Source: an uncultured Candidatus Peribacteria bacterium (lineage in GTDB: Bacteria > Patescibacteriota > Gracilibacteria > Peribacterales > Peribacteraceae). From it: DNA of 57,899 bases. The position numbers and the translations under genes are program-made. The notes below the pieces were generated by a model, which was not told where the DNA came from, did no database searches, and saw only the letters and a list, made by a program, of their open reading frames with translations. Location of the stretch: assembly GCA_964645935.1 (NCBI GenBank), contig CAZYAK010000003.1, positions 1-57,899 of the forward strand, given 5' to 3'. The stretch's first letter is position 1. Each line of letters begins with the position of its first letter. This document shows, piece after piece, positions 3,330-42,569 of this stretch.

Positions 3330-4904
3330 TCATGGTTGGACGACGTAGCGGACCGTCTTCACCGACGGGAATTGCTTGAGGTTGGCGGAGATCGCGCGCT
3401 GCGCGGAGGTGGAGCTCTCGGTGTCACCCTGGAAGATCTCGGCCAGCGGGCGGGCCAGCCGCACCGTGGCCGTGCCGCCCTGGATGACGACGCCGCGGTA
3501 ATCGTCTCCCGAGAAGCCCCACACGCCGTTGCAGGGCTGGGCCTTCTCGTCGGCGGAGATGGAGGCGTGGAGCATCGCGCGGAGCGTCATGTCCGCCACG
3601 GAGGAGGACTGGGGCACGGTGCGCGTGAGCTTCACGGTGGGCGCCGGGACGTCATGCACGCCCGAGCCGTAGGGGCAGAGCAGGATGCTCACCTCCATGG
3701 TGGGAGCCTCCTGCGCGGCGGGCGCGGGCGCGATGTCCACGGTGTCCAGGAACGCGCGGAAGAGCTGGTCCTGCCCGTCGGAGGAGAGGTATCCGTCCTG
3801 TTGTTGATTGCAGTCCACCGACCGTACGATCACGAGCGTGCGCGTCGCGTCCATGGGGACGAAGGTCGTCTCCCAGCCCTCGCACTCGAGGCCCTCGAAG
3901 TACGAGACGCCTTGGCGCCCGTCCACGGTGACATTCTGGGCGAAGTCCTCGTCGAAGGAGTTGAAGCCGAGCCGCGCGTACACGAGCGGCCGGTCCAGGA
4001 CGCCCACGGAGATCGCCAGCTTGCTCACGGAGGGGCGGCACGGGGCGTCTGGGCCCGCCATACCGTTGCAGCCCTCTGCGGTCTCGTGGCGGCGCACGTG
4101 CGCGACATCCAGGGAGTGCATGCGCTGCAGGTCGCCGGGTACGTAGATGTCACGCACCGTCAGCACGCCTTCCTTGGCGCTGAAGAGCGATCCGGGGTAG
4201 CTGAAGGAGACGTCACGCAGCACGGACGACACCTCGTCGCTGCGCACGTCGTCACCGTCCTCGATGCCGGAGAACCATTCCAGCGACGTGCGGCCGGTAT
4301 CCAAGCGATAGCGCAGCTCCGCCATCTCGCCGCGCGTGAACGGGGCGTCGTAGGCCTCCACGGTGGGCGGCACGGCGTGGCGCGCCAGGAGGGCGGAGGC
4401 GTAGGGCGCGTACCAGCGGTGGTCGTACGCGTCCGCGGGGAGGATGGGCAGCTTGTAGGCGGTGGCGGCGATCTTGGCGGCCTCGGCGTAGTTGATCCAC
4501 GCGTGCGGCGCGAAGCCGCCGTCGGGGTATCCCGAGACGATGCCACGCTCCTTGGCCACGCACACGTACGGCGCGAACCACTCGGTCCTGGGGACGTCGG
4601 GGAAGATGATCTGGGATTTAGCCACGCAGGCCGAGCGCTCCTCGGGGGTGGAAGCGTCCACCACCAGGAGCTTGGTCAGCTCCGCGCGGGTGATGAGGCC
4701 GTCCGGACGGAACGTGCCGTCGGGGTAGCCCTCCACGCTCCCCTTCCCGCGCAGGAACTCGATGGCGGGCGCGGCGGACACGCATCCGCGGACGTCGGAG
4801 AAACCCGTGGCCGCGGCGTTGCAGCCGGTGGTGGCCAGCGCGACGGGAACGGCCAAGAGGGACGTCGACGCGACGGCGGCGGACAGTAGGAGGGAGAGGC
4901 GCAT
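3330..4904 (-). CDS. secreted SLH-domain protein with C-terminal GerMN-like domain
   Basis: Signal peptide MRLSLLLSAAVASTSLLAVPVALA. Two SLH-type repeats (GYPDGTFRPDGLITRAEL, SGYPDGGFAPHAWINYAEAAK). The C-terminal ...GGTATVRLARPL...ANLKQFPSVKTVRYVV looks GerMN-like. Confidence 0.7.
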   Translation of the reverse strand: MRLSLLLSAAVASTSLLAVPVALATTGCNAAATGFSDVRGCVSAAPAIEFLRGKGSVEGYPDGTFRPDGLITRAELTKLLVVDASTPEERSACVAKSQIIFPDVPRTEWFAPYVCVAKERGIVSGYPDGGFAPHAWINYAEAAKIAATAYKLPILPADAYDHRWYAPYASALLARHAVPPTVEAYDAPFTRGEMAELRYRLDTGRTSLEWFSGIEDGDDVRSDEVSSVLRDVSFSYPGSLFSAKEGVLTVRDIYVPGDLQRMHSLDVAHVRRHETAEGCNGMAGPDAPCRPSVSKLAISVGVLDRPLVYARLGFNSFDEDFAQNVTVDGRQGVSYFEGLECEGWETTFVPMDATRTLVIVRSVDCNQQQDGYLSSDGQDQLFRAFLDTVDIAPAPAAQEAPTMEVSILLCPYGSGVHDVPAPTVKLTRTVPQSSSVADMTLRAMLHASISADEKAQPCNGVWGFSGDDYRGVVIQGGTATVRLARPLAEIFQGDTESSTSAQRAISANLKQFPSVKTVRYVVQP

Positions 4905-28393: not shown

Positions 28394-30196
28394 TCACTCC
28401 CACTCAATCGTGCCCGGCGGCTTGTTGGTAAGGTCCAGAAAGACGAGATCGACGCCATCGAGCGCCAAGACACGCTCCGTCATGCTCTGGAGCACGGAAG
28501 GCGGGAGGACGAAGGCGTGGGCCGTCATCGCGTCGGTAGAGACGATAGGGCGCAGCACCACAGACTGGCCACCGGCGCGTGTGCCGAATGGCAGCAGCAC
28601 TACGGGGAACTGCCAGATCTCCCCATCCAAAGCGGCGCGCACCATCTCTTCGTGCACAGCGGCGTCGGCCTCGCGCAGGAGGTCAGCACGCTGACGCGTG
28701 ATGGCCCCGGGGGTGAAGGTGAAGGCGACAGGCGGAGCGGTACGTGAGGTGCAGAGCAGCACGCGATTGAGCGTGGGGTGGGAATTCGGGACCGACGTGG
28801 CTAGATGCAGGTGCTCTTCGGTGACGACGGTTGGCCGGTCCGAGAAGAGCGCCACCGCGTGGCGGTACGTGCGGCCGTCACCCTGCACGCCCACGGACTT
28901 CACGGGGAGGATGGCGTGCGTGCCTAGGCGTGCGGTGTCGCTGCGCCCGGGAAGGTCGGGGCCATTGGCGCAGAGAATGCGCACCCCAAGTCCCGGTCCC
29001 GGGAACGGATGGCGCCACACGAGAGCTTTCGGCAGACCCAGCTCCTCGCCAAGCAGGCGCACTTCGTCTTTGTAGAGCTCCTTGAGCGGCTCGATCACGA
29101 GGCCGGCGTCGATCATCTTCTGCACCGCATCTACACGATTGTGGTGCGTCTTAATATGGTCTGCATGCTTGGTACCGCCAGTCTCGATGGTGTCGGGGTA
29201 GATGGTCCCCTGGCCCAGCATCCAGCCATCCTCCACGCGAAGGTTCAGCCGCTCACTCACGCGCTTCTGCACAGCCAGGAACGTGTCGCCGATGATCTTC
29301 CGCTTAGCCTCGGGCTCGGTCACGCCCTCCAGGTTCTTGAAGAATTCGGCCGAAGCGTCCTCCACTTTGAGGTTGGTGATGCCAAGCTTCTCAAAGGCCT
29401 CCGTAATGAGCGCAACTTCGTTTTTCCGCATCAGGCCCGTGTCGACGAGCAGGCCCTGCACGCGGTCCGCGCCAAGCACCTTGTTGAGGAGCGTGAACGC
29501 GACGGAGGAATCCACGCCGCCGGAGACGAGCATGAAGACCTTGCGATCGCCGACCTCTTTGTTGAGCGCCGCACCCACATGGTCCTCGAAGCTGGTCATG
29601 GACCAGGGCGCAGGCTCGCAGAGCATCACGAAGTTCTTGAGGAGATCCATCCCGTGCTCCGTGTGTGTCACCTCCAGGTGGAACTGCGCGCCGTAGAGAC
29701 GACGCTTCTCGTCCGCCATCGCGGCGTAGTCGCCCACCGCGGTCTTGGCGGACTGCGAGAAGCCCTGGGGCAGGACGCTCACCTCGTCGCCGTGGGACAT
29801 CCACACCGTGAAGGTTTTGGGCAGACCCTTGAAGAGCGCGCCGTGGCTGGTGACGGTAAGGGGCGTCTTGCCGTACTCCTTCACCTTCCCCGGGGTGACC
29901 TTGCCGCCGAGGACCTGGGCCAGCCACTGATGGCCGTAGCAGAGGCCGAGCACGGGGATGCCGAGCTCCAGGATCGTGGGGTCCGCCTGGGGGCTCCCCT
30001 TCTCATACACGCTCTGCGGTCCTCCGGAGAGGATGATCCCCGCGGCGCCTGTGAGCTCCTCAGCCGGCGTCTCCGCCACGCGGATCTCCGAATACGCCCC
30101 CAGACGCCGGACGCGGTTGGCGATGAGGTGGGCGTACTGCCCGCCGAAATCCAGGATGACAATGGAGCCGGGGTGGATGGGAGGCGGGCCCTTCAT
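28394..30196 (-). CDS. guaA: GMP synthase (glutamine-hydrolysing)
   Basis: GATase (ILDFGGQYAHLIANRVR, LGLCYGHQ), the ATP-PPase P-loop SGGVDSS and the canonical C-terminus KPPGTIEWE. Start at MKGPPPIHPG. Confidence 0.95.
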   Translation of the reverse strand: MKGPPPIHPGSIVILDFGGQYAHLIANRVRRLGAYSEIRVAETPAEELTGAAGIILSGGPQSVYEKGSPQADPTILELGIPVLGLCYGHQWLAQVLGGKVTPGKVKEYGKTPLTVTSHGALFKGLPKTFTVWMSHGDEVSVLPQGFSQSAKTAVGDYAAMADEKRRLYGAQFHLEVTHTEHGMDLLKNFVMLCEPAPWSMTSFEDHVGAALNKEVGDRKVFMLVSGGVDSSVAFTLLNKVLGADRVQGLLVDTGLMRKNEVALITEAFEKLGITNLKVEDASAEFFKNLEGVTEPEAKRKIIGDTFLAVQKRVSERLNLRVEDGWMLGQGTIYPDTIETGGTKHADHIKTHHNRVDAVQKMIDAGLVIEPLKELYKDEVRLLGEELGLPKALVWRHPFPGPGLGVRILCANGPDLPGRSDTARLGTHAILPVKSVGVQGDGRTYRHAVALFSDRPTVVTEEHLHLATSVPNSHPTLNRVLLCTSRTAPPVAFTFTPGAITRQRADLLREADAAVHEEMVRAALDGEIWQFPVVLLPFGTRAGGQSVVLRPIVSTDAMTAHAFVLPPSVLQSMTERVLALDGVDLVFLDLTNKPPGTIEWE

Positions 30197-39390: not shown

Positions 39391-40050
39391 TCAACGCACC
39401 TGCCCCTTGCGCCACTCCGCCACCTTGCCGTGGTGGCCGGAGAGCAGGACATCGGGGACGCGCATCCCGCGGAACTCCTCCGGGCGCGTGTAGTGGGGGT
39501 ACTCCTTGCGGCGCCCGAGTATTTTGGAAAAACTCTCTTCCTGCGCCGACTCTTCTTTTCCCAGCACGCCGGGCACGTGCCGCGCGACGGCGTCCAAGAG
39601 AACCATAGCGGGCAGCTCCCCGCCCGTGAGCACGTAGTCGCCGATGGAGACCTCCTCGTCGATCCACCCGTCGATGACACGCTGGTCCACGCCCTCGTAG
39701 CGGCCGCAGAGGAGCAGGAGCCACCCGTGCTTCTTGGCCATCCGCTCCACGCGCGTCTGCGTGAGCCGGTTGCCGCGCGGCGAGAGGTACACGCGGTGCG
39801 GCTTCTTGTCCGCGGGTCCGTCCGCGGACACCTTCTCGATGAGCTTCACCAGCGGTTCGCACATCATGAGCATGCCCGCTCCTCCGCCATACGGGCGGTC
39901 ATCCACCTGGCGGTGCGACCCCGTCCCGAACTCCCGCAGGTCGTGTACATGCACATCCAGGAGCGCCTTCTCCCGCGCCTTCTGCAGGATGCTCTCCGTG
40001 AGCGGGCCGTCGAACATGGCCGGGAAGAGTGTCAGGATGTCGATTCTCAT
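39391..40050 (-). CDS. trmD: tRNA (guanine37-N1)-methyltransferase
   Basis: MRIDILTLFPAMFDGPL..., DDRPYGGGAGMLM and SIGDYVLTGGELPAMVLLDAV. Confidence 0.95.
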   Translation of the reverse strand: MRIDILTLFPAMFDGPLTESILQKAREKALLDVHVHDLREFGTGSHRQVDDRPYGGGAGMLMMCEPLVKLIEKVSADGPADKKPHRVYLSPRGNRLTQTRVERMAKKHGWLLLLCGRYEGVDQRVIDGWIDEEVSIGDYVLTGGELPAMVLLDAVARHVPGVLGKEESAQEESFSKILGRRKEYPHYTRPEEFRGMRVPDVLLSGHHGKVAEWRKGQVR

Positions 40051-40126
40051 GGAATGGAAGAAAGGATGCCTGCCCGGCGGAGCTCCGGCAGGAGCAGAGT
40101 CGGGTCGATGCGCATGCGCCCAGCAT

Positions 40127-40161
40127 ACGCGAAAGCCGCCACGGGAGGAGCCGTGGCGGCG
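40127..40161 (-). terminator. 35-nt hairpin module, copy 1 (terminator of the 40175 gene)
   Basis: Minus strand: GCCGCCACGG-CUCCUC-CCGUGGCGGC-UUUCGCGU. Identical 35-mer at 40705-40739. Confidence 0.6.
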
Positions 40162-40174
40162 GATGTCGGAAGCG

Positions 40175-40483
40175 CTAGGCCTCCGGCGGGGAGGAGAGAC
40201 GGATAACGTCGCCCGTCAACGTGACGGTGAGGACGTCATCCAGGCTGAACAACGCTCCCCTGAAGGGCGCCAGACGCCGTCCGTCCGGCAGGACGAGCGC
40301 GGCGACCTCGAGCCAGACCAGGCTCGAGAGCCCGGTCCTGTGGTGCTCAGACAGGATTTTGCGCTGCACCAGCCCGCTTTCAACCCATTCCATCTCCCAC
40401 ACTCCCCACGGGCGATGGAAGAGACTCAGTTCCCCCTCGAATGGAAGTATCTCCCCAACCGACGTCTTCCAGGTCTCGATCAT
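40175..40483 (-). CDS. hypothetical protein (102 aa)
   Basis: ORF trimmed to MIETWKTS, with GGGAGG 6 nt upstream of the ATG. Confidence 0.6.
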   Translation of the reverse strand: MIETWKTSVGEILPFEGELSLFHRPWGVWEMEWVESGLVQRKILSEHHRTGLSSLVWLEVAALVLPDGRRLAPFRGALFSLDDVLTVTLTGDVIRLSSPPEA

Positions 40484-40670
40484 CGGACACCTCCCACGGC
40501 ACCCGCGCTCGCCCTCCTGCGGCGAGCTGTTACCGCCTCGGGTCAACGGACGCCCGGCCGCGACGTGCGGCAAGGCCCCTCGGTGAGCGAGGGTGGATGG
40601 GAGGTCGGTTCCAAGGAGCGGACACCCAGTATCGCTGCAGCGGCACGGCGGACAACCGATCTGGCCGCGC
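40484..40670 (-). promoter_or_regulatory. structured 5' leader, copy 1 (riboswitch/attenuator candidate)
   Basis: Shares a 30-nt identical box (40489-40518 = 41411-41440) and a 20-nt box (40585-40604 ~ 41510-41529) with the leader of the 41407 gene. The boxes are mutually complementary and sequester GGGAGG. Confidence 0.55.
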
Positions 40671-40704
40671 TTCCAGGAAGACGCGAAACACCGGGAATCC
40701 GCGC

Positions 40705-40739
40705 ACGCGAAAGCCGCCACGGGAGGAGCCGTGGCGGCG
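40705..40739 (-). terminator. 35-nt hairpin module, copy 2 (terminator of the 40766 gene)
   Basis: Identical to 40127-40161. Confidence 0.6.
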
Positions 40740-40765
40740 CGCCGGAAACCCCGGGGGGCCTCCGG

Positions 40766-41407
40766 TCAGAGGGTCAGGACCAGTGTCTGGCCGCCGCGTT
40801 CGGCGACCCAGAGCTTGGGCATCTGGCTCGGATCGAGCGGGGACGGGTCCAGGAACACCAGGCCGTCGAACGACGGCACCAGAGTTCCGTTGGGGAGAAC
40901 CAGGTCGTCTCGCACATGCATGGGCAGCTGGGACACGGCGACCCATGACGAGTGTGACTCACCCCGACGGATGAAGTACGCCACCCAGCCACCTCGATAC
41001 ATGAACAGACGCACGCCGCTCTTGGGTTCGAGGGCCTCGTGCAGGCGTTCGTGTGTCCAGGCCGTAAGATGGCCTGACGTACCCACAGACGCATGGGCAG
41101 GGAAGACGTGCGTGCGGCCGCCAGCGTCCGCAACCCAGACGACTCCCCCGACATCTGGATCGGCGATGATGACGCCCGTGAAGGGCTCCATCACGCATGC
41201 TCCTAACACGAGCAGGTTACCCTCGGAGACGAGAACGGGGTGGTGGTGCGCCAGCCGGTGGTGCGAGCCACCCGTGACGATGGTTTCGGGTCGGTACAAC
41301 ACCGACCAGTCCCCTCTGTACTCGTCTTCCGGTGCGAGGATGACTCCGGGGTCGCGCAGCTGGTGCGCGACACGTTCGTTCGATTCCCAGAAACTGATAC
41401 TGGACAT
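40766..41407 (-). CDS. hypothetical protein (213 aa), His-rich N-terminal part
   Basis: ORF trimmed to MSSISFWES, with GGGAGG 4 nt upstream of the ATG. Confidence 0.6.
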   Translation of the reverse strand: MSSISFWESNERVAHQLRDPGVILAPEDEYRGDWSVLYRPETIVTGGSHHRLAHHHPVLVSEGNLLVLGACVMEPFTGVIIADPDVGGVVWVADAGGRTHVFPAHASVGTSGHLTAWTHERLHEALEPKSGVRLFMYRGGWVAYFIRRGESHSSWVAVSQLPMHVRDDLVLPNGTLVPSFDGLVFLDPSPLDPSQMPKLWVAERGGQTLVLTL

Positions 41408-41651
41408 GGTACCTCCCACGGCACCCGCGCTCGCCCTCCTCGGCGAACAGGTATGCCGCGAAGTGAAGCGTGGACCCAACCGCGGAGCGCGGCCAGACCC
41501 CCTCGCGATGAGCGAGGGTGGGTGGGAGGAAATGCCAAAGAGCGGCCGATCAGTGTGCCAGGGCCACCCGCGGACGCAAGTGCAGGGGTGTGGCAACCAG
41601 CGTGTGCGCCAGTTATGTTGTGGCTCATCCCCCCCACGCGGGACAACCGGC
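41408..41651 (-). promoter_or_regulatory. structured 5' leader, copy 2 (riboswitch/attenuator candidate)
   Basis: See copy 1. It fills the whole korB-to-ORF spacer. Confidence 0.55.
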
Positions 41652-42569
41652 TCAGATGAAGTCCTTCCAGAGCCCGCTCACGTCCACCCGCTCCACCTCC
41701 TCCACGGCGGTGGTCTCCCTCCCTTTCCGGGGCTCTAAGCGATCGTAGAAGCTGGGGACATCCGTGCGGCGGTAGAGGACACCGGTGGCGATGCGCTCGG
41801 AGACGTCCAAGGTGAGCGCGCGGGCCTTCTGGATATCGCAGGCCGGATCGTGGCCCTCCGCGTTGGCGTCGTAGCACTTGGCCAGGAGGTACTCGTGCGT
41901 GGCGAAGCGGTTGTAGGTGGGGCAAGCCTGCAGGACGTCCACGAACGCGAAACCGTGCTGCTGGTGGAGGATGGCCTGCTTGAAGAGCTGCGTGAGCTGC
42001 ACAATGTCGCCCGAGAACCCGCGCGCCACGAACGTGGGCTCCAGCGAGTACACGAAATCCATGGAGTTGATGGTGTGCTCGGGGATGCCGTTGGGAGAGG
42101 AGTTCATGGGCTGGCCCTGCCAGGTCAGCGAGCTAGCCTGGCCCGTGGTGAGCCCGTAGTTGGCGTTGTTGTGGAGAACGAACGTGATGGGGTAGTTGCT
42201 GCGGATGCTATGGACGAGATGACCCACACCCTCCGAGAAGCTGGCGCCGTCGCCGCCAAAGGCGATGACGGGCAAGCGCGGGTTGGCGAGCTTCGCACCG
42301 GCGGCGAAGGGCAGCACGCGGCCGTGCAGTCCGTGGAAGCGGTACCCCTTGAGTTTGTCCGAACCGTTGCCATGGCAGCCCACGTCGTAGCAGAGCAAGG
42401 CCTGCCACGGGGCGATGTTTAGCTCCACAAGTGCGCGCTTGATGGCCGTCCAGATGCCGTAGTCGCCGCAGCCGTCACACCACGTACACCTGTTCGCGCA
42501 GGCGTACTGCCCCATGGTGGGAGCCTGTGTGGAGTCTGCCGAGGGATCAATGTGGAGGGGAATGCTCAT
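41652..42569 (-). CDS. korB: 2-oxoacid:ferredoxin oxidoreductase, beta (TPP-binding) subunit
   Basis: CDGCGDYGI, GCHGNGS and AFGGDGASFSEGVGHL TPP motif. Start at MSIPLH, overlapping the alpha stop (ATGA). Confidence 0.9.
   Translation of the reverse strand: MSIPLHIDPSADSTQAPTMGQYACANRCTWCDGCGDYGIWTAIKRALVELNIAPWQALLCYDVGCHGNGSDKLKGYRFHGLHGRVLPFAAGAKLANPRLPVIAFGGDGASFSEGVGHLVHSIRSNYPITFVLHNNANYGLTTGQASSLTWQGQPMNSSPNGIPEHTINSMDFVYSLEPTFVARGFSGDIVQLTQLFKQAILHQQHGFAFVDVLQACPTYNRFATHEYLLAKCYDANAEGHDPACDIQKARALTLDVSERIATGVLYRRTDVPSFYDRLEPRKGRETTAVEEVERVDVSGLWKDFI

Follow-up and report, generated by a model that had tools for sequence, protein, structure and literature searches.

The spacer downstream of korB in the analyzed DNA of an uncultured Candidatus Peribacteria bacterium carries a member of a 5'-UTR RNA family that is specific to Candidatus Peribacteraceae and has no counterpart in Rfam 15. 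Members of this family share a long-range helix (P1) and a hairpin (P4) that covary; in the copy studied here the Shine-Dalgarno (SD) sequence of the following gene is predicted to be occluded within P1, and complementarity between the leaders and the terminators of their own genes covaries among lineages. We put at roughly 60% the probability that this element, referred to below as copy 2, is a Peribacteraceae 5'-UTR RNA that functions as a translational-occlusion leader in an mRNA whose 5' and 3' ends touch.

Organization of the korB-trmD locus

The window, i.e., the whole 57,899-nt stretch of DNA that was analyzed, comes from a genome with 64% GC. All gene features considered here lie on its minus strand, in the order flavodoxin (44847-44392), korA, korB, a 244-nt spacer, P0001, a GC hairpin terminator, a second spacer, P0002, the identical terminator again, and trmD. 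The features of this locus are as follows.

41652..42569, minus strand: korB, OFOR beta subunit (Pfam TPP_enzyme_C and PFO_beta_C)
41549..41651, minus strand: korB-proximal part of the spacer, outside the conserved motif, with CGGTTGTCC (41641-41649) and a weak promoter-like site
41405..41548, minus strand: leader copy 2, limits from the covariance model, ending with the ATG (140.5 bits with model R1, 104 bits with model R2)
40766..41407, minus strand: P0001, 213-aa orphan protein, the gene behind copy 2, with a coding GC3 pattern
40708..40738, minus strand: terminator hairpin GCCGCCACGG-CUCCUC-CCGUGGCGGC followed by UUUCG, within a 35-mer repeat
40481..40624, minus strand: leader copy 1, from the covariance model, preceded by a promoter-like site
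40175..40483, minus strand: P0002, 102-aa orphan protein downstream of copy 1, an ORF with a coding GC pattern
40130..40160, minus strand: second copy of the terminator hairpin, with a CUCCUC loop, a repeat of the P0001 terminator

Pfam searches confirmed the flavodoxin and the OFOR alpha and beta subunits upstream of the spacer and trmD downstream. The korB gene is the last of the flavodoxin-korA-korB operon and is 70-81% identical in other Peribacteria; the spacer extends from its stop codon (41652-41654) to the ATG at 41407-41405. Both orphan ORFs have the GC1/GC2/GC3 pattern of coding sequence (0.69/0.46/0.77 for the 213-aa ORF and 0.64/0.45/0.81 for the 102-aa ORF). Searches of 5.8 billion clustered and 1.84 billion representative proteins returned no homologue of P0001, which also lacks a Pfam domain and has an AlphaFold2 model (pLDDT 35) without a confident fold. 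For annotation purposes, the 213-aa orphan is a real gene that is probably tightly controlled. P0001 and P0002 were considered as paralogs; their BLASTP match of E = 0.01 does not establish homology between two such short proteins.

The repeated non-coding stretch before the 213-aa gene is a real repeat. As the first-pass annotation had reported, the 30-mer around the 3' box at 41411-41440 is identical to 40489-40518, a type of match that appeared in none of 100 dinucleotide-preserving shuffles of the window, and the 5' box stretches 41510-41529 and 40585-40604 differ at 1 of 20 positions. The extra distance in copy 2 between CGGTTGTCC (40650-40658 in copy 1) and the 5' box, given there as about 70 nt, is 66 nt. 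The limits of the element had to be redrawn, since the leader was said to start directly after the korB stop codon and to fill the spacer: the conserved unit comprises 144 nt (41548-41405) and starts 103 nt past that stop, and CGGUUGUCC, formerly counted as part of the leader, lies outside the conserved motif and overlaps the predicted -35 element in copy 1. These two adjacent copies are the only ones in the window's genome. Their ORF-proximal flanks are 100% identical and their middles ~77% identical, and the 35-mer with the terminator is an exact duplicate (40705-40739 and 40127-40161). A third partial match to the 5' box, CCTCCCATCCACCCCGGCTC (30165-30184, minus strand), lies inside guaA, where it encodes residues 5-11 (PPIHPGS), and was set aside as a chance match.

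Structure and distribution of the leader family

Two covariance models were used for the family search: R1, built from three sequences (both window copies and that of genome G012, in which the same 5' and 3' boxes lie between korB and trmD before an unrelated 102-aa ORF), and R2, built from 13 sequences. R2 identified the motif in 78 of 200 Candidatus Peribacteraceae genomes representing 42 of 84 genera, at 1-5 copies each, with E-values that are rough, coming from a shortened model calibration, and with counts and statistics that, here and below, cover related genomes rather than independent observations. Among 301 sampled genomes of the class, a single marginal match lies outside the family, and all clear ones lie within it. 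Four model matches (L029, L032, L033, and L034) were discarded as false positives, among them the palindromic CCCTCTCC/GGGGAGAGGG element of L032 (G212:C57, ~1501-1633), a CCCTCTCC repeat that has a weak R1 score on both strands and does not belong to the leader family. A low-complexity artefact as the source of the model matches is argued against by the conserved 5' tail and the promoter position described below. A scan of the whole window against Rfam 15 at gathering thresholds gave 0 matches, and a search in E-value mode with 22 loci (the window, G012, and 20 other members) returned tRNAs and sub-threshold noise, none on the leader. No published cis-regulatory RNA for Peregrinibacteria was found in the literature searched for Peregrinibacteria and riboswitch. 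A phage or wider environmental origin was rejected as well, as the two-box pattern has no match in viral contigs and none of the 9 metagenome matches to a 21-mer of the window-type 3' box is the leader.

In one genome, five leader-ORF units are arranged in tandem on the minus strand, ~590-670 nt apart (L058, G150:C3:50500-56500; motif copies at 4075-4231, 3408-3566, 2749-2899, 2159-2261, and 1575-1735); a clear promoter (TATAAT) occurs at the first unit only, and two internal units have identical upstream sequence. Genes for tRNAs lie within a few hundred bases of several leaders (L028 498-571, L046 1098-1181, L036 2066-2139, L039 1736-1817, and L026 2270-2353); in L028 the tRNA ends 39 nt upstream of the motif.

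The leader of copy 2 consists of the following elements.

41533..41543, minus strand: 5' tail GCUCUUUGGCA, from column frequencies (40609-40619 in copy 1)
41514..41529, minus strand: 5' box CCUCCCACCCACCCUC, the anti-SD strand; in P1a, 41529-41522 pairs with 41419-41412
41500..41518, minus strand: P2 hairpin CCCUCGC-UCAUC-GCGAGGG, overlapping the 5' strand of P1b
41472..41499, minus strand: P3 hairpin, which varies across the family and is missing from minimal members of ~80 nt
41428..41449, minus strand: P4 hairpin UGUUCGCC-GAGGAG-GGCGAGCG, with its loop at 41441-41436
41412..41426, minus strand: 3' box GGGUGCCGUGGGAGG, identical to 40490-40504

Across the family, P1 is a long-range helix of the 5' box CCYCCCAYCCACCC with the 3' box GGrUGCCGUGGGrG, read in the sequences as 5' yCCCCYAY-C-CACCC(UC) and 3' (GA)GGAUG-CC-GUGGGGr; it spans 100-130 nt around a multi-hairpin domain and contains a small conserved internal loop with a recurrent C.A opposition. 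In the proposed fold, the C-rich 5' box CCUCCCAC(CC)CACCC would pair with the G-rich 3' box GGGUG(CC)GUGGGAGG and enclose the variable P2-P4 domain. The CACCC part of the 5' box can pair with GGGUG to form P1b; since P2 overlaps the 5' strand of P1b, these two pairings are alternative. P4 (GUUCGC, a GGGAG or GAGGAG loop, GCGAAC) is present in ~70% of copies. Of the single-stranded parts of the motif, the 5' tail is the most conserved: it reads GnUCnUUnnCA almost invariantly, with seven positions conserved at 79-98% (alignment columns 8-18). It resembles both the anti-SD (UCCUU) and a -35 hexamer (TTGACA), and no pairing partner or role was found for it: it does not covary with the P4 3' strand, for which it was considered as an alternative partner (MI 0.08), and as a second -35 hexamer it has no usable -10 at 16-18 nt downstream in the sequences read by eye. 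A candidate 16S rRNA 3' end (GCGGAUCACCUCCUUUGCG) with the usual CCUCC anti-SD lies on contig C19 (minus strand, ~21296), and the 5' box together with the start of P2 (AUCCACCCUCUUU) resembles its tail.

The covariation check that had been suggested for the structured 5' leader was run on 56 distinct sequences and bears the proposal out, with P1 and P4 kept by compensatory changes. In these sequences, 88.2% of cells are paired versus 71.2% for shuffled sequences and 42-51% when the partners are slid; the covariation score is 0.346 versus 0.163 and was reached by 0 of 500 shuffles. Changes on both sides occur in 32 of 35 pairs, including all eight pairs of P4, with pair counts that come from alignments fitted to the model and are thus biased towards its structure. 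The two strands read straight from the sequences likewise keep the helix as CCUCCCA/UGGGAGG, CCCCCA/UGGGGG, CCUCCA/UGGAGG, CCCCUCA/UGAGGGG, and UUCCUA/UGGGAA; CAGCU/AGCUG is a further strand pair read in this way. Folded as a single sequence, the whole spacer is no better than its shuffles (z = -0.8).

The genes that follow the leaders are diverse. They encode orphans, GNAT acetyltransferases (L055, L050, and L069), DUF7067/DUF2934-like motif proteins, Gly/Tyr-rich and Cys-rich proteins with signal peptides, and proteins with Lys-rich tails; most of these proteins, 76-451 aa in length, have no similarity to one another. A recurrent family of ~165-180 aa with the motif 'AAYFRWE..G.P' follows the leader in seven loci (L030, L051, L052, L053, L061, L062, and L070) and corresponds in Pfam to DUF7067 or DUF2934 (L051 and L052 scanned).

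Translation initiation and transcription downstream of korB

In copy 2, the SD sequence GGGAGG (41417-41412) lies 4 nt upstream of the ATG (41407-41405) and is itself the 3' strand of P1, where it pairs with CCUCCC (41529-41524). When the RNA is folded from ~41545 to +30, the predicted probability that the SD is unpaired is at most 0.005, and forcing it single-stranded has a predicted cost of 11.5 kcal/mol in copy 2 and 7.5 kcal/mol in copy 1. The first-pass annotation had left it open whether the leader terminates transcription or occludes translation. Occlusion is the better of these two options because the SD of copy 2 lies in P1 and is predicted to be paired, whereas termination inside the leader is unlikely because the scan detected no hairpin followed by a U tract there. 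A transcription attenuator finds the same obstacle, in that there is no terminator-like site and the 3' box runs straight to the SD and ATG or to an A-rich spacer. Since the 3' strand of P1 is the SD in the window's clade and the ATG follows after 4 nt, the folded leader would presumably block ribosome binding to the 213-aa gene. The block would hold alike for a transcript from the weak promoter-like site at 41579-41552 and for read-through from korB, and the leader might be opened by a protein, a helicase, processing, or a growth condition. CsrA and Hfq were rejected as leader-binding proteins, as a tblastn search of the 94%-complete genome with CsrA of E. coli and of B. subtilis and Hfq of E. 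coli as queries gave nothing below E = 1.

The 3' box itself serves as the SD in the window, in G012 and G033, and in a few other members, at 3 to 9 nt before the start codon. Most other members have a separate true SD, AAGGAG, 10-50 nt downstream of P1; therefore, SD occlusion cannot be the ancestral or general function of the family. An upstream anti-SD strand paired with the SD and retained in evolution is found, by predicted fold and covariation, in the window's clade only. In SD-occluding leaders and RNA thermometers (ROSE and fourU), as in copy 2, the SD makes up the 3' side of a helix that is imperfect and whose mismatches or internal loop are conserved; in contrast to them, P1 of the Peribacteraceae leader spans 100-130 nt around a multi-hairpin domain and the real SD of most members lies outside it. 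The downstream genes examined include no heat-shock family, and no Rfam thermometer was matched.

Of 56 copies, 26 are preceded by a sigma-70-like promoter that ends 4-14 nt upstream of the motif, compared with 2 of 56 in a control window shifted by 60 nt upstream. The promoter-like site of copy 2 (TTGCGT, 41574-41579; 16 nt; CACACT, 41552-41557) matches 6 of 12 consensus positions and stays below the threshold; that of copy 1 (TTGTCC, 40655-40650; 16 nt; GATACT, 40633-40628) is better and aligns with it. None passed in a promoter scan of the leaders downstream of korB in G012 and G033. The statement that no terminator separates korB from the leader holds for canonical sites: the scan shows no terminator-like site in 39900-42000, and it is limited to canonical sites because it also misses the GC hairpin plus UUUCG terminators of this very locus. 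Given the lack of a terminator-like site and a promoter-like site that matches only 6 of the 12 positions, transcripts may well read through from korB past the leader, the route by which the first-pass annotation had linked the 213-aa protein to the redox operon.

The proposed tie between the 213-aa gene and the redox operon was not supported, as the leader is not specific to this operon. Only two of 80 Peribacteria korB loci, those of G012 and G033, carry the leader downstream, and more than 50 other leader copies examined precede unrelated genes elsewhere. Because only these two genomes share its position, the korB link is confined to a small clade of three genera and does not characterize the leader as such; the place of the 213-aa orphan after korB implies no functional tie to the redox operon. 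The korB-trmD interval of relatives behaves as a variable insertion slot (loci L009, L010, L011, and L014), with a distance of 92 nt in G004 and of ~0.7-1.1 kb in G011, G014, and G020, and with no leader in the interval of these genomes. In G001, which belongs to the same genus (L008/L078; CAYOFI010000016.1), the contig ends 70 nt past the korB stop, where the window has the leader cassettes; this contig end may be an assembly break at a repeat.

Complementarity of the mRNA ends and alternative explanations

The terminator of P0001 contains CUCCUCCC (40728-40721), which is complementary both to the P4 loop GAGGAG and to the SD GGGAGG, with predicted pairing energies of -8.2 and -10.3 kcal/mol, respectively. 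The two cassettes of the window are the only places in its genome where a hairpin combines a CUCCYC loop with a U-rich tail; in the family, a CUCCYC loop is found in the terminators after the downstream genes in 20 of 54 cases. The P4 loop has a perfect complement of at least 6 nt in the terminator loop of the same gene in 15 of 33 cases, versus 5.5 by permutation with terminators swapped among members (0 of 1000), and the 3' box with its flank has one of at least 6 nt, and up to 10 nt, in 24 of 54 cases versus 11.6 expected (0 of 1000), where complementarity was scored as exact Watson-Crick matches only and a DNA-level inverted repeat fits equally well. Six types of P4/terminator pairs occur in different lineages, namely GAGGAG/CUCCUC (the window), GGGGAG/CUCCCC, GUGGGG/CCCCAC, GGGAGC/GCUCCC, ACACGG/CCGUGU, and GGGCAG/CUGCCC. 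For the contact between the 3' box and the terminator, a compensatory change was identified between two genomes of one genus (GGGGAGCAC/GUGCUCCCC versus GGGGAGCGC/GCGCUCCCC). P4 and the terminator usually have different stems and yet matching loops, and an RNA loop contact is therefore favored over a copied DNA repeat. The ends of the mRNA might touch either as a loop-loop kiss with P1 closed or through the terminator loop and the 3' box with P1 open, and such contact would add to repression or stability. We infer that these contacts form in the cell and repress translation. In L024 (G076:C3), a 301-aa ORF is flanked by an inverted repeat of ~13 nt, one arm of which is GUGGGGGAGCACA within the 3' box and the other the reverse complement of this sequence within the ORF's terminator; the 3' box of this clade can also form a mini-hairpin, GUG-GGGGAG-CAC, mirroring the GUG-CUCCCC-CAC of the terminator.

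Three known systems resemble this arrangement. In the mRNAs of hok-type (type I) toxins, a fold-back between the 5' tac element and the 3' fbi element keeps the full-length transcript inactive. Pairing of mRNA ends and sequestration of the SD by upstream anti-SD sequences are common to hok and the Peribacteraceae leader; the latter precedes proteins of 76-451 aa from many families, most of them not hydrophobic-looking on reading their sequences, rather than small hydrophobic toxins, and its contact is a loop of 6-10 nt rather than a long fold-back. In the icaR mRNA of Staphylococcus aureus, a UCCCC motif of the 3' UTR pairs with the SD region of the 5' UTR (PMC3868564). The window contains the corresponding complementarity, as CCUCCC in the terminator loop region matches the SD GGGAGG. 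The two cases have in common a C-rich stretch, similar to an anti-SD, that lies towards the 3' end and is complementary to the G-rich region around the SD of its own transcript; translation would be expected to be repressed, perhaps together with processing by an RNase. In contrast to icaR, the C-rich motif of the Peribacteraceae lies in a terminator hairpin loop and is also complementary to the SD-mimicking P4 loop, the leader already has an internal anti-SD strand (the 5' box) on the SD, and the arrangement, as predicted from sequence, is spread over many unrelated genes family-wide and not confined to a single gene. The structured 5' UTR of B. subtilis hbs pairs with the 3' end of its own mRNA and alters RNase action (PMC5737220). 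It shares with the predicted Peribacteraceae contact the complementarity of 5' UTR and 3' end within one mRNA; there is no sequence similarity, and hbs is a single conserved gene with a strong, exposed SD that is not occluded. Unlike icaR, hbs, and hok, the Peribacteraceae use one conserved frame on many unrelated genes across a family.

The same features can be read at the DNA level, with promoter, leader, and terminator as the ends of a swappable, mobile, or invertible cassette in which the inverted repeat formed by the 3' box and the terminator would serve recombination and RNA pairing would be incidental. Such a cassette would account for the unrelated ORFs between recurring 5' and 3' modules, the five-unit tandem array of G150, the korB-trmD slot that varies from 92 nt to ~1.1 kb in relatives and holds two units in the window, the inverted repeats of up to 13 nt around the ORF of L024, the copies adjoining tRNA genes, and the window's ORF-proximal flanks being 100% identical against ~77% for the leader middles. 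We regard it as unlikely, given that P1 contains many G-U pairs (20 and 29 of 56 at two positions), which would be A-C mismatches in the opposite strand, and that loops which stay complementary while their stems differ are expected of a kissing contact but not of a copied repeat. The orientation is fixed to promoters and ORFs, with the downstream ORF forward in 55 of 55 loci that have one, in assemblies that show the majority state only; there are no integron core sites (GTTRRRY), and the tail G(U/C)UC(U/C)UU with the two boxes is unlike the RYYYAAC ... GTTRRRY arrangement of an attC cassette.

A riboswitch, in which the domain closed by P1 would bind a small molecule or second messenger and binding would set the exposure of the SD, is a distinctly improbable reading. 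The enclosure of a multi-hairpin domain by an SD-bearing helix and the mutually exclusive P1b and P2 would suit it, as would the several copies per genome before varied genes (secreted and hypothetical), which recall cyclic-dinucleotide riboswitches. The conserved nucleotides, on the other hand, are in the P1 strands, the 5' tail, and the P4 loop, and none are in the junction, which like P2 and P3 is variable in sequence and length, while the ~80-nt members consist of the tail and an irregular hairpin only; the members thus share no conserved ligand-binding core. No Rfam riboswitch family was matched, and the downstream genes have no common function and represent no single pathway or transport function. 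This spread of genes and the variable junction argue against a metabolite riboswitch and accord with post-transcriptional control through a common element. Local duplication of a promoter and UTR without a regulatory role, with the two genes as old tandem duplicates, is highly improbable: the genome's only two copies are adjacent, the two proteins match weakly in BLASTP, and the fold z-scores are not significant, but the leader occurs in 42 genera before unrelated proteins with compensatory changes, its complementarity to terminators covaries, and E = 0.01 between two short proteins is no evidence of homology.

Returning to the translational-occlusion leader with contacting mRNA ends, we tentatively suggest a wider interpretation, to which we give less than even odds, that Peribacteraceae mark fast-evolving accessory genes with a modular mRNA 'frame'. 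The leader and terminator would close on each other through pairing of the SD-like elements of the leader (the P4 loop and the 3' box) with the terminator loop, the marked genes would form a regulon under one shared post-transcriptional trigger, and the flanks could allow ORFs to be swapped by recombination. The motif, with more than 100 copies and presence in ~40% of the genomes of one family, represents a concrete RNA family supported by covariation, and it singles out putatively co-regulated orphan, secreted, and acetyltransferase genes in uncultured small-genome bacteria that are worth studying. Should the complementarity of leader and terminator prove functional, communication between bacterial 5' and 3' UTRs, until now demonstrated for individual genes only (icaR, hbs, and hok among them), would have an example that extends across a whole family.
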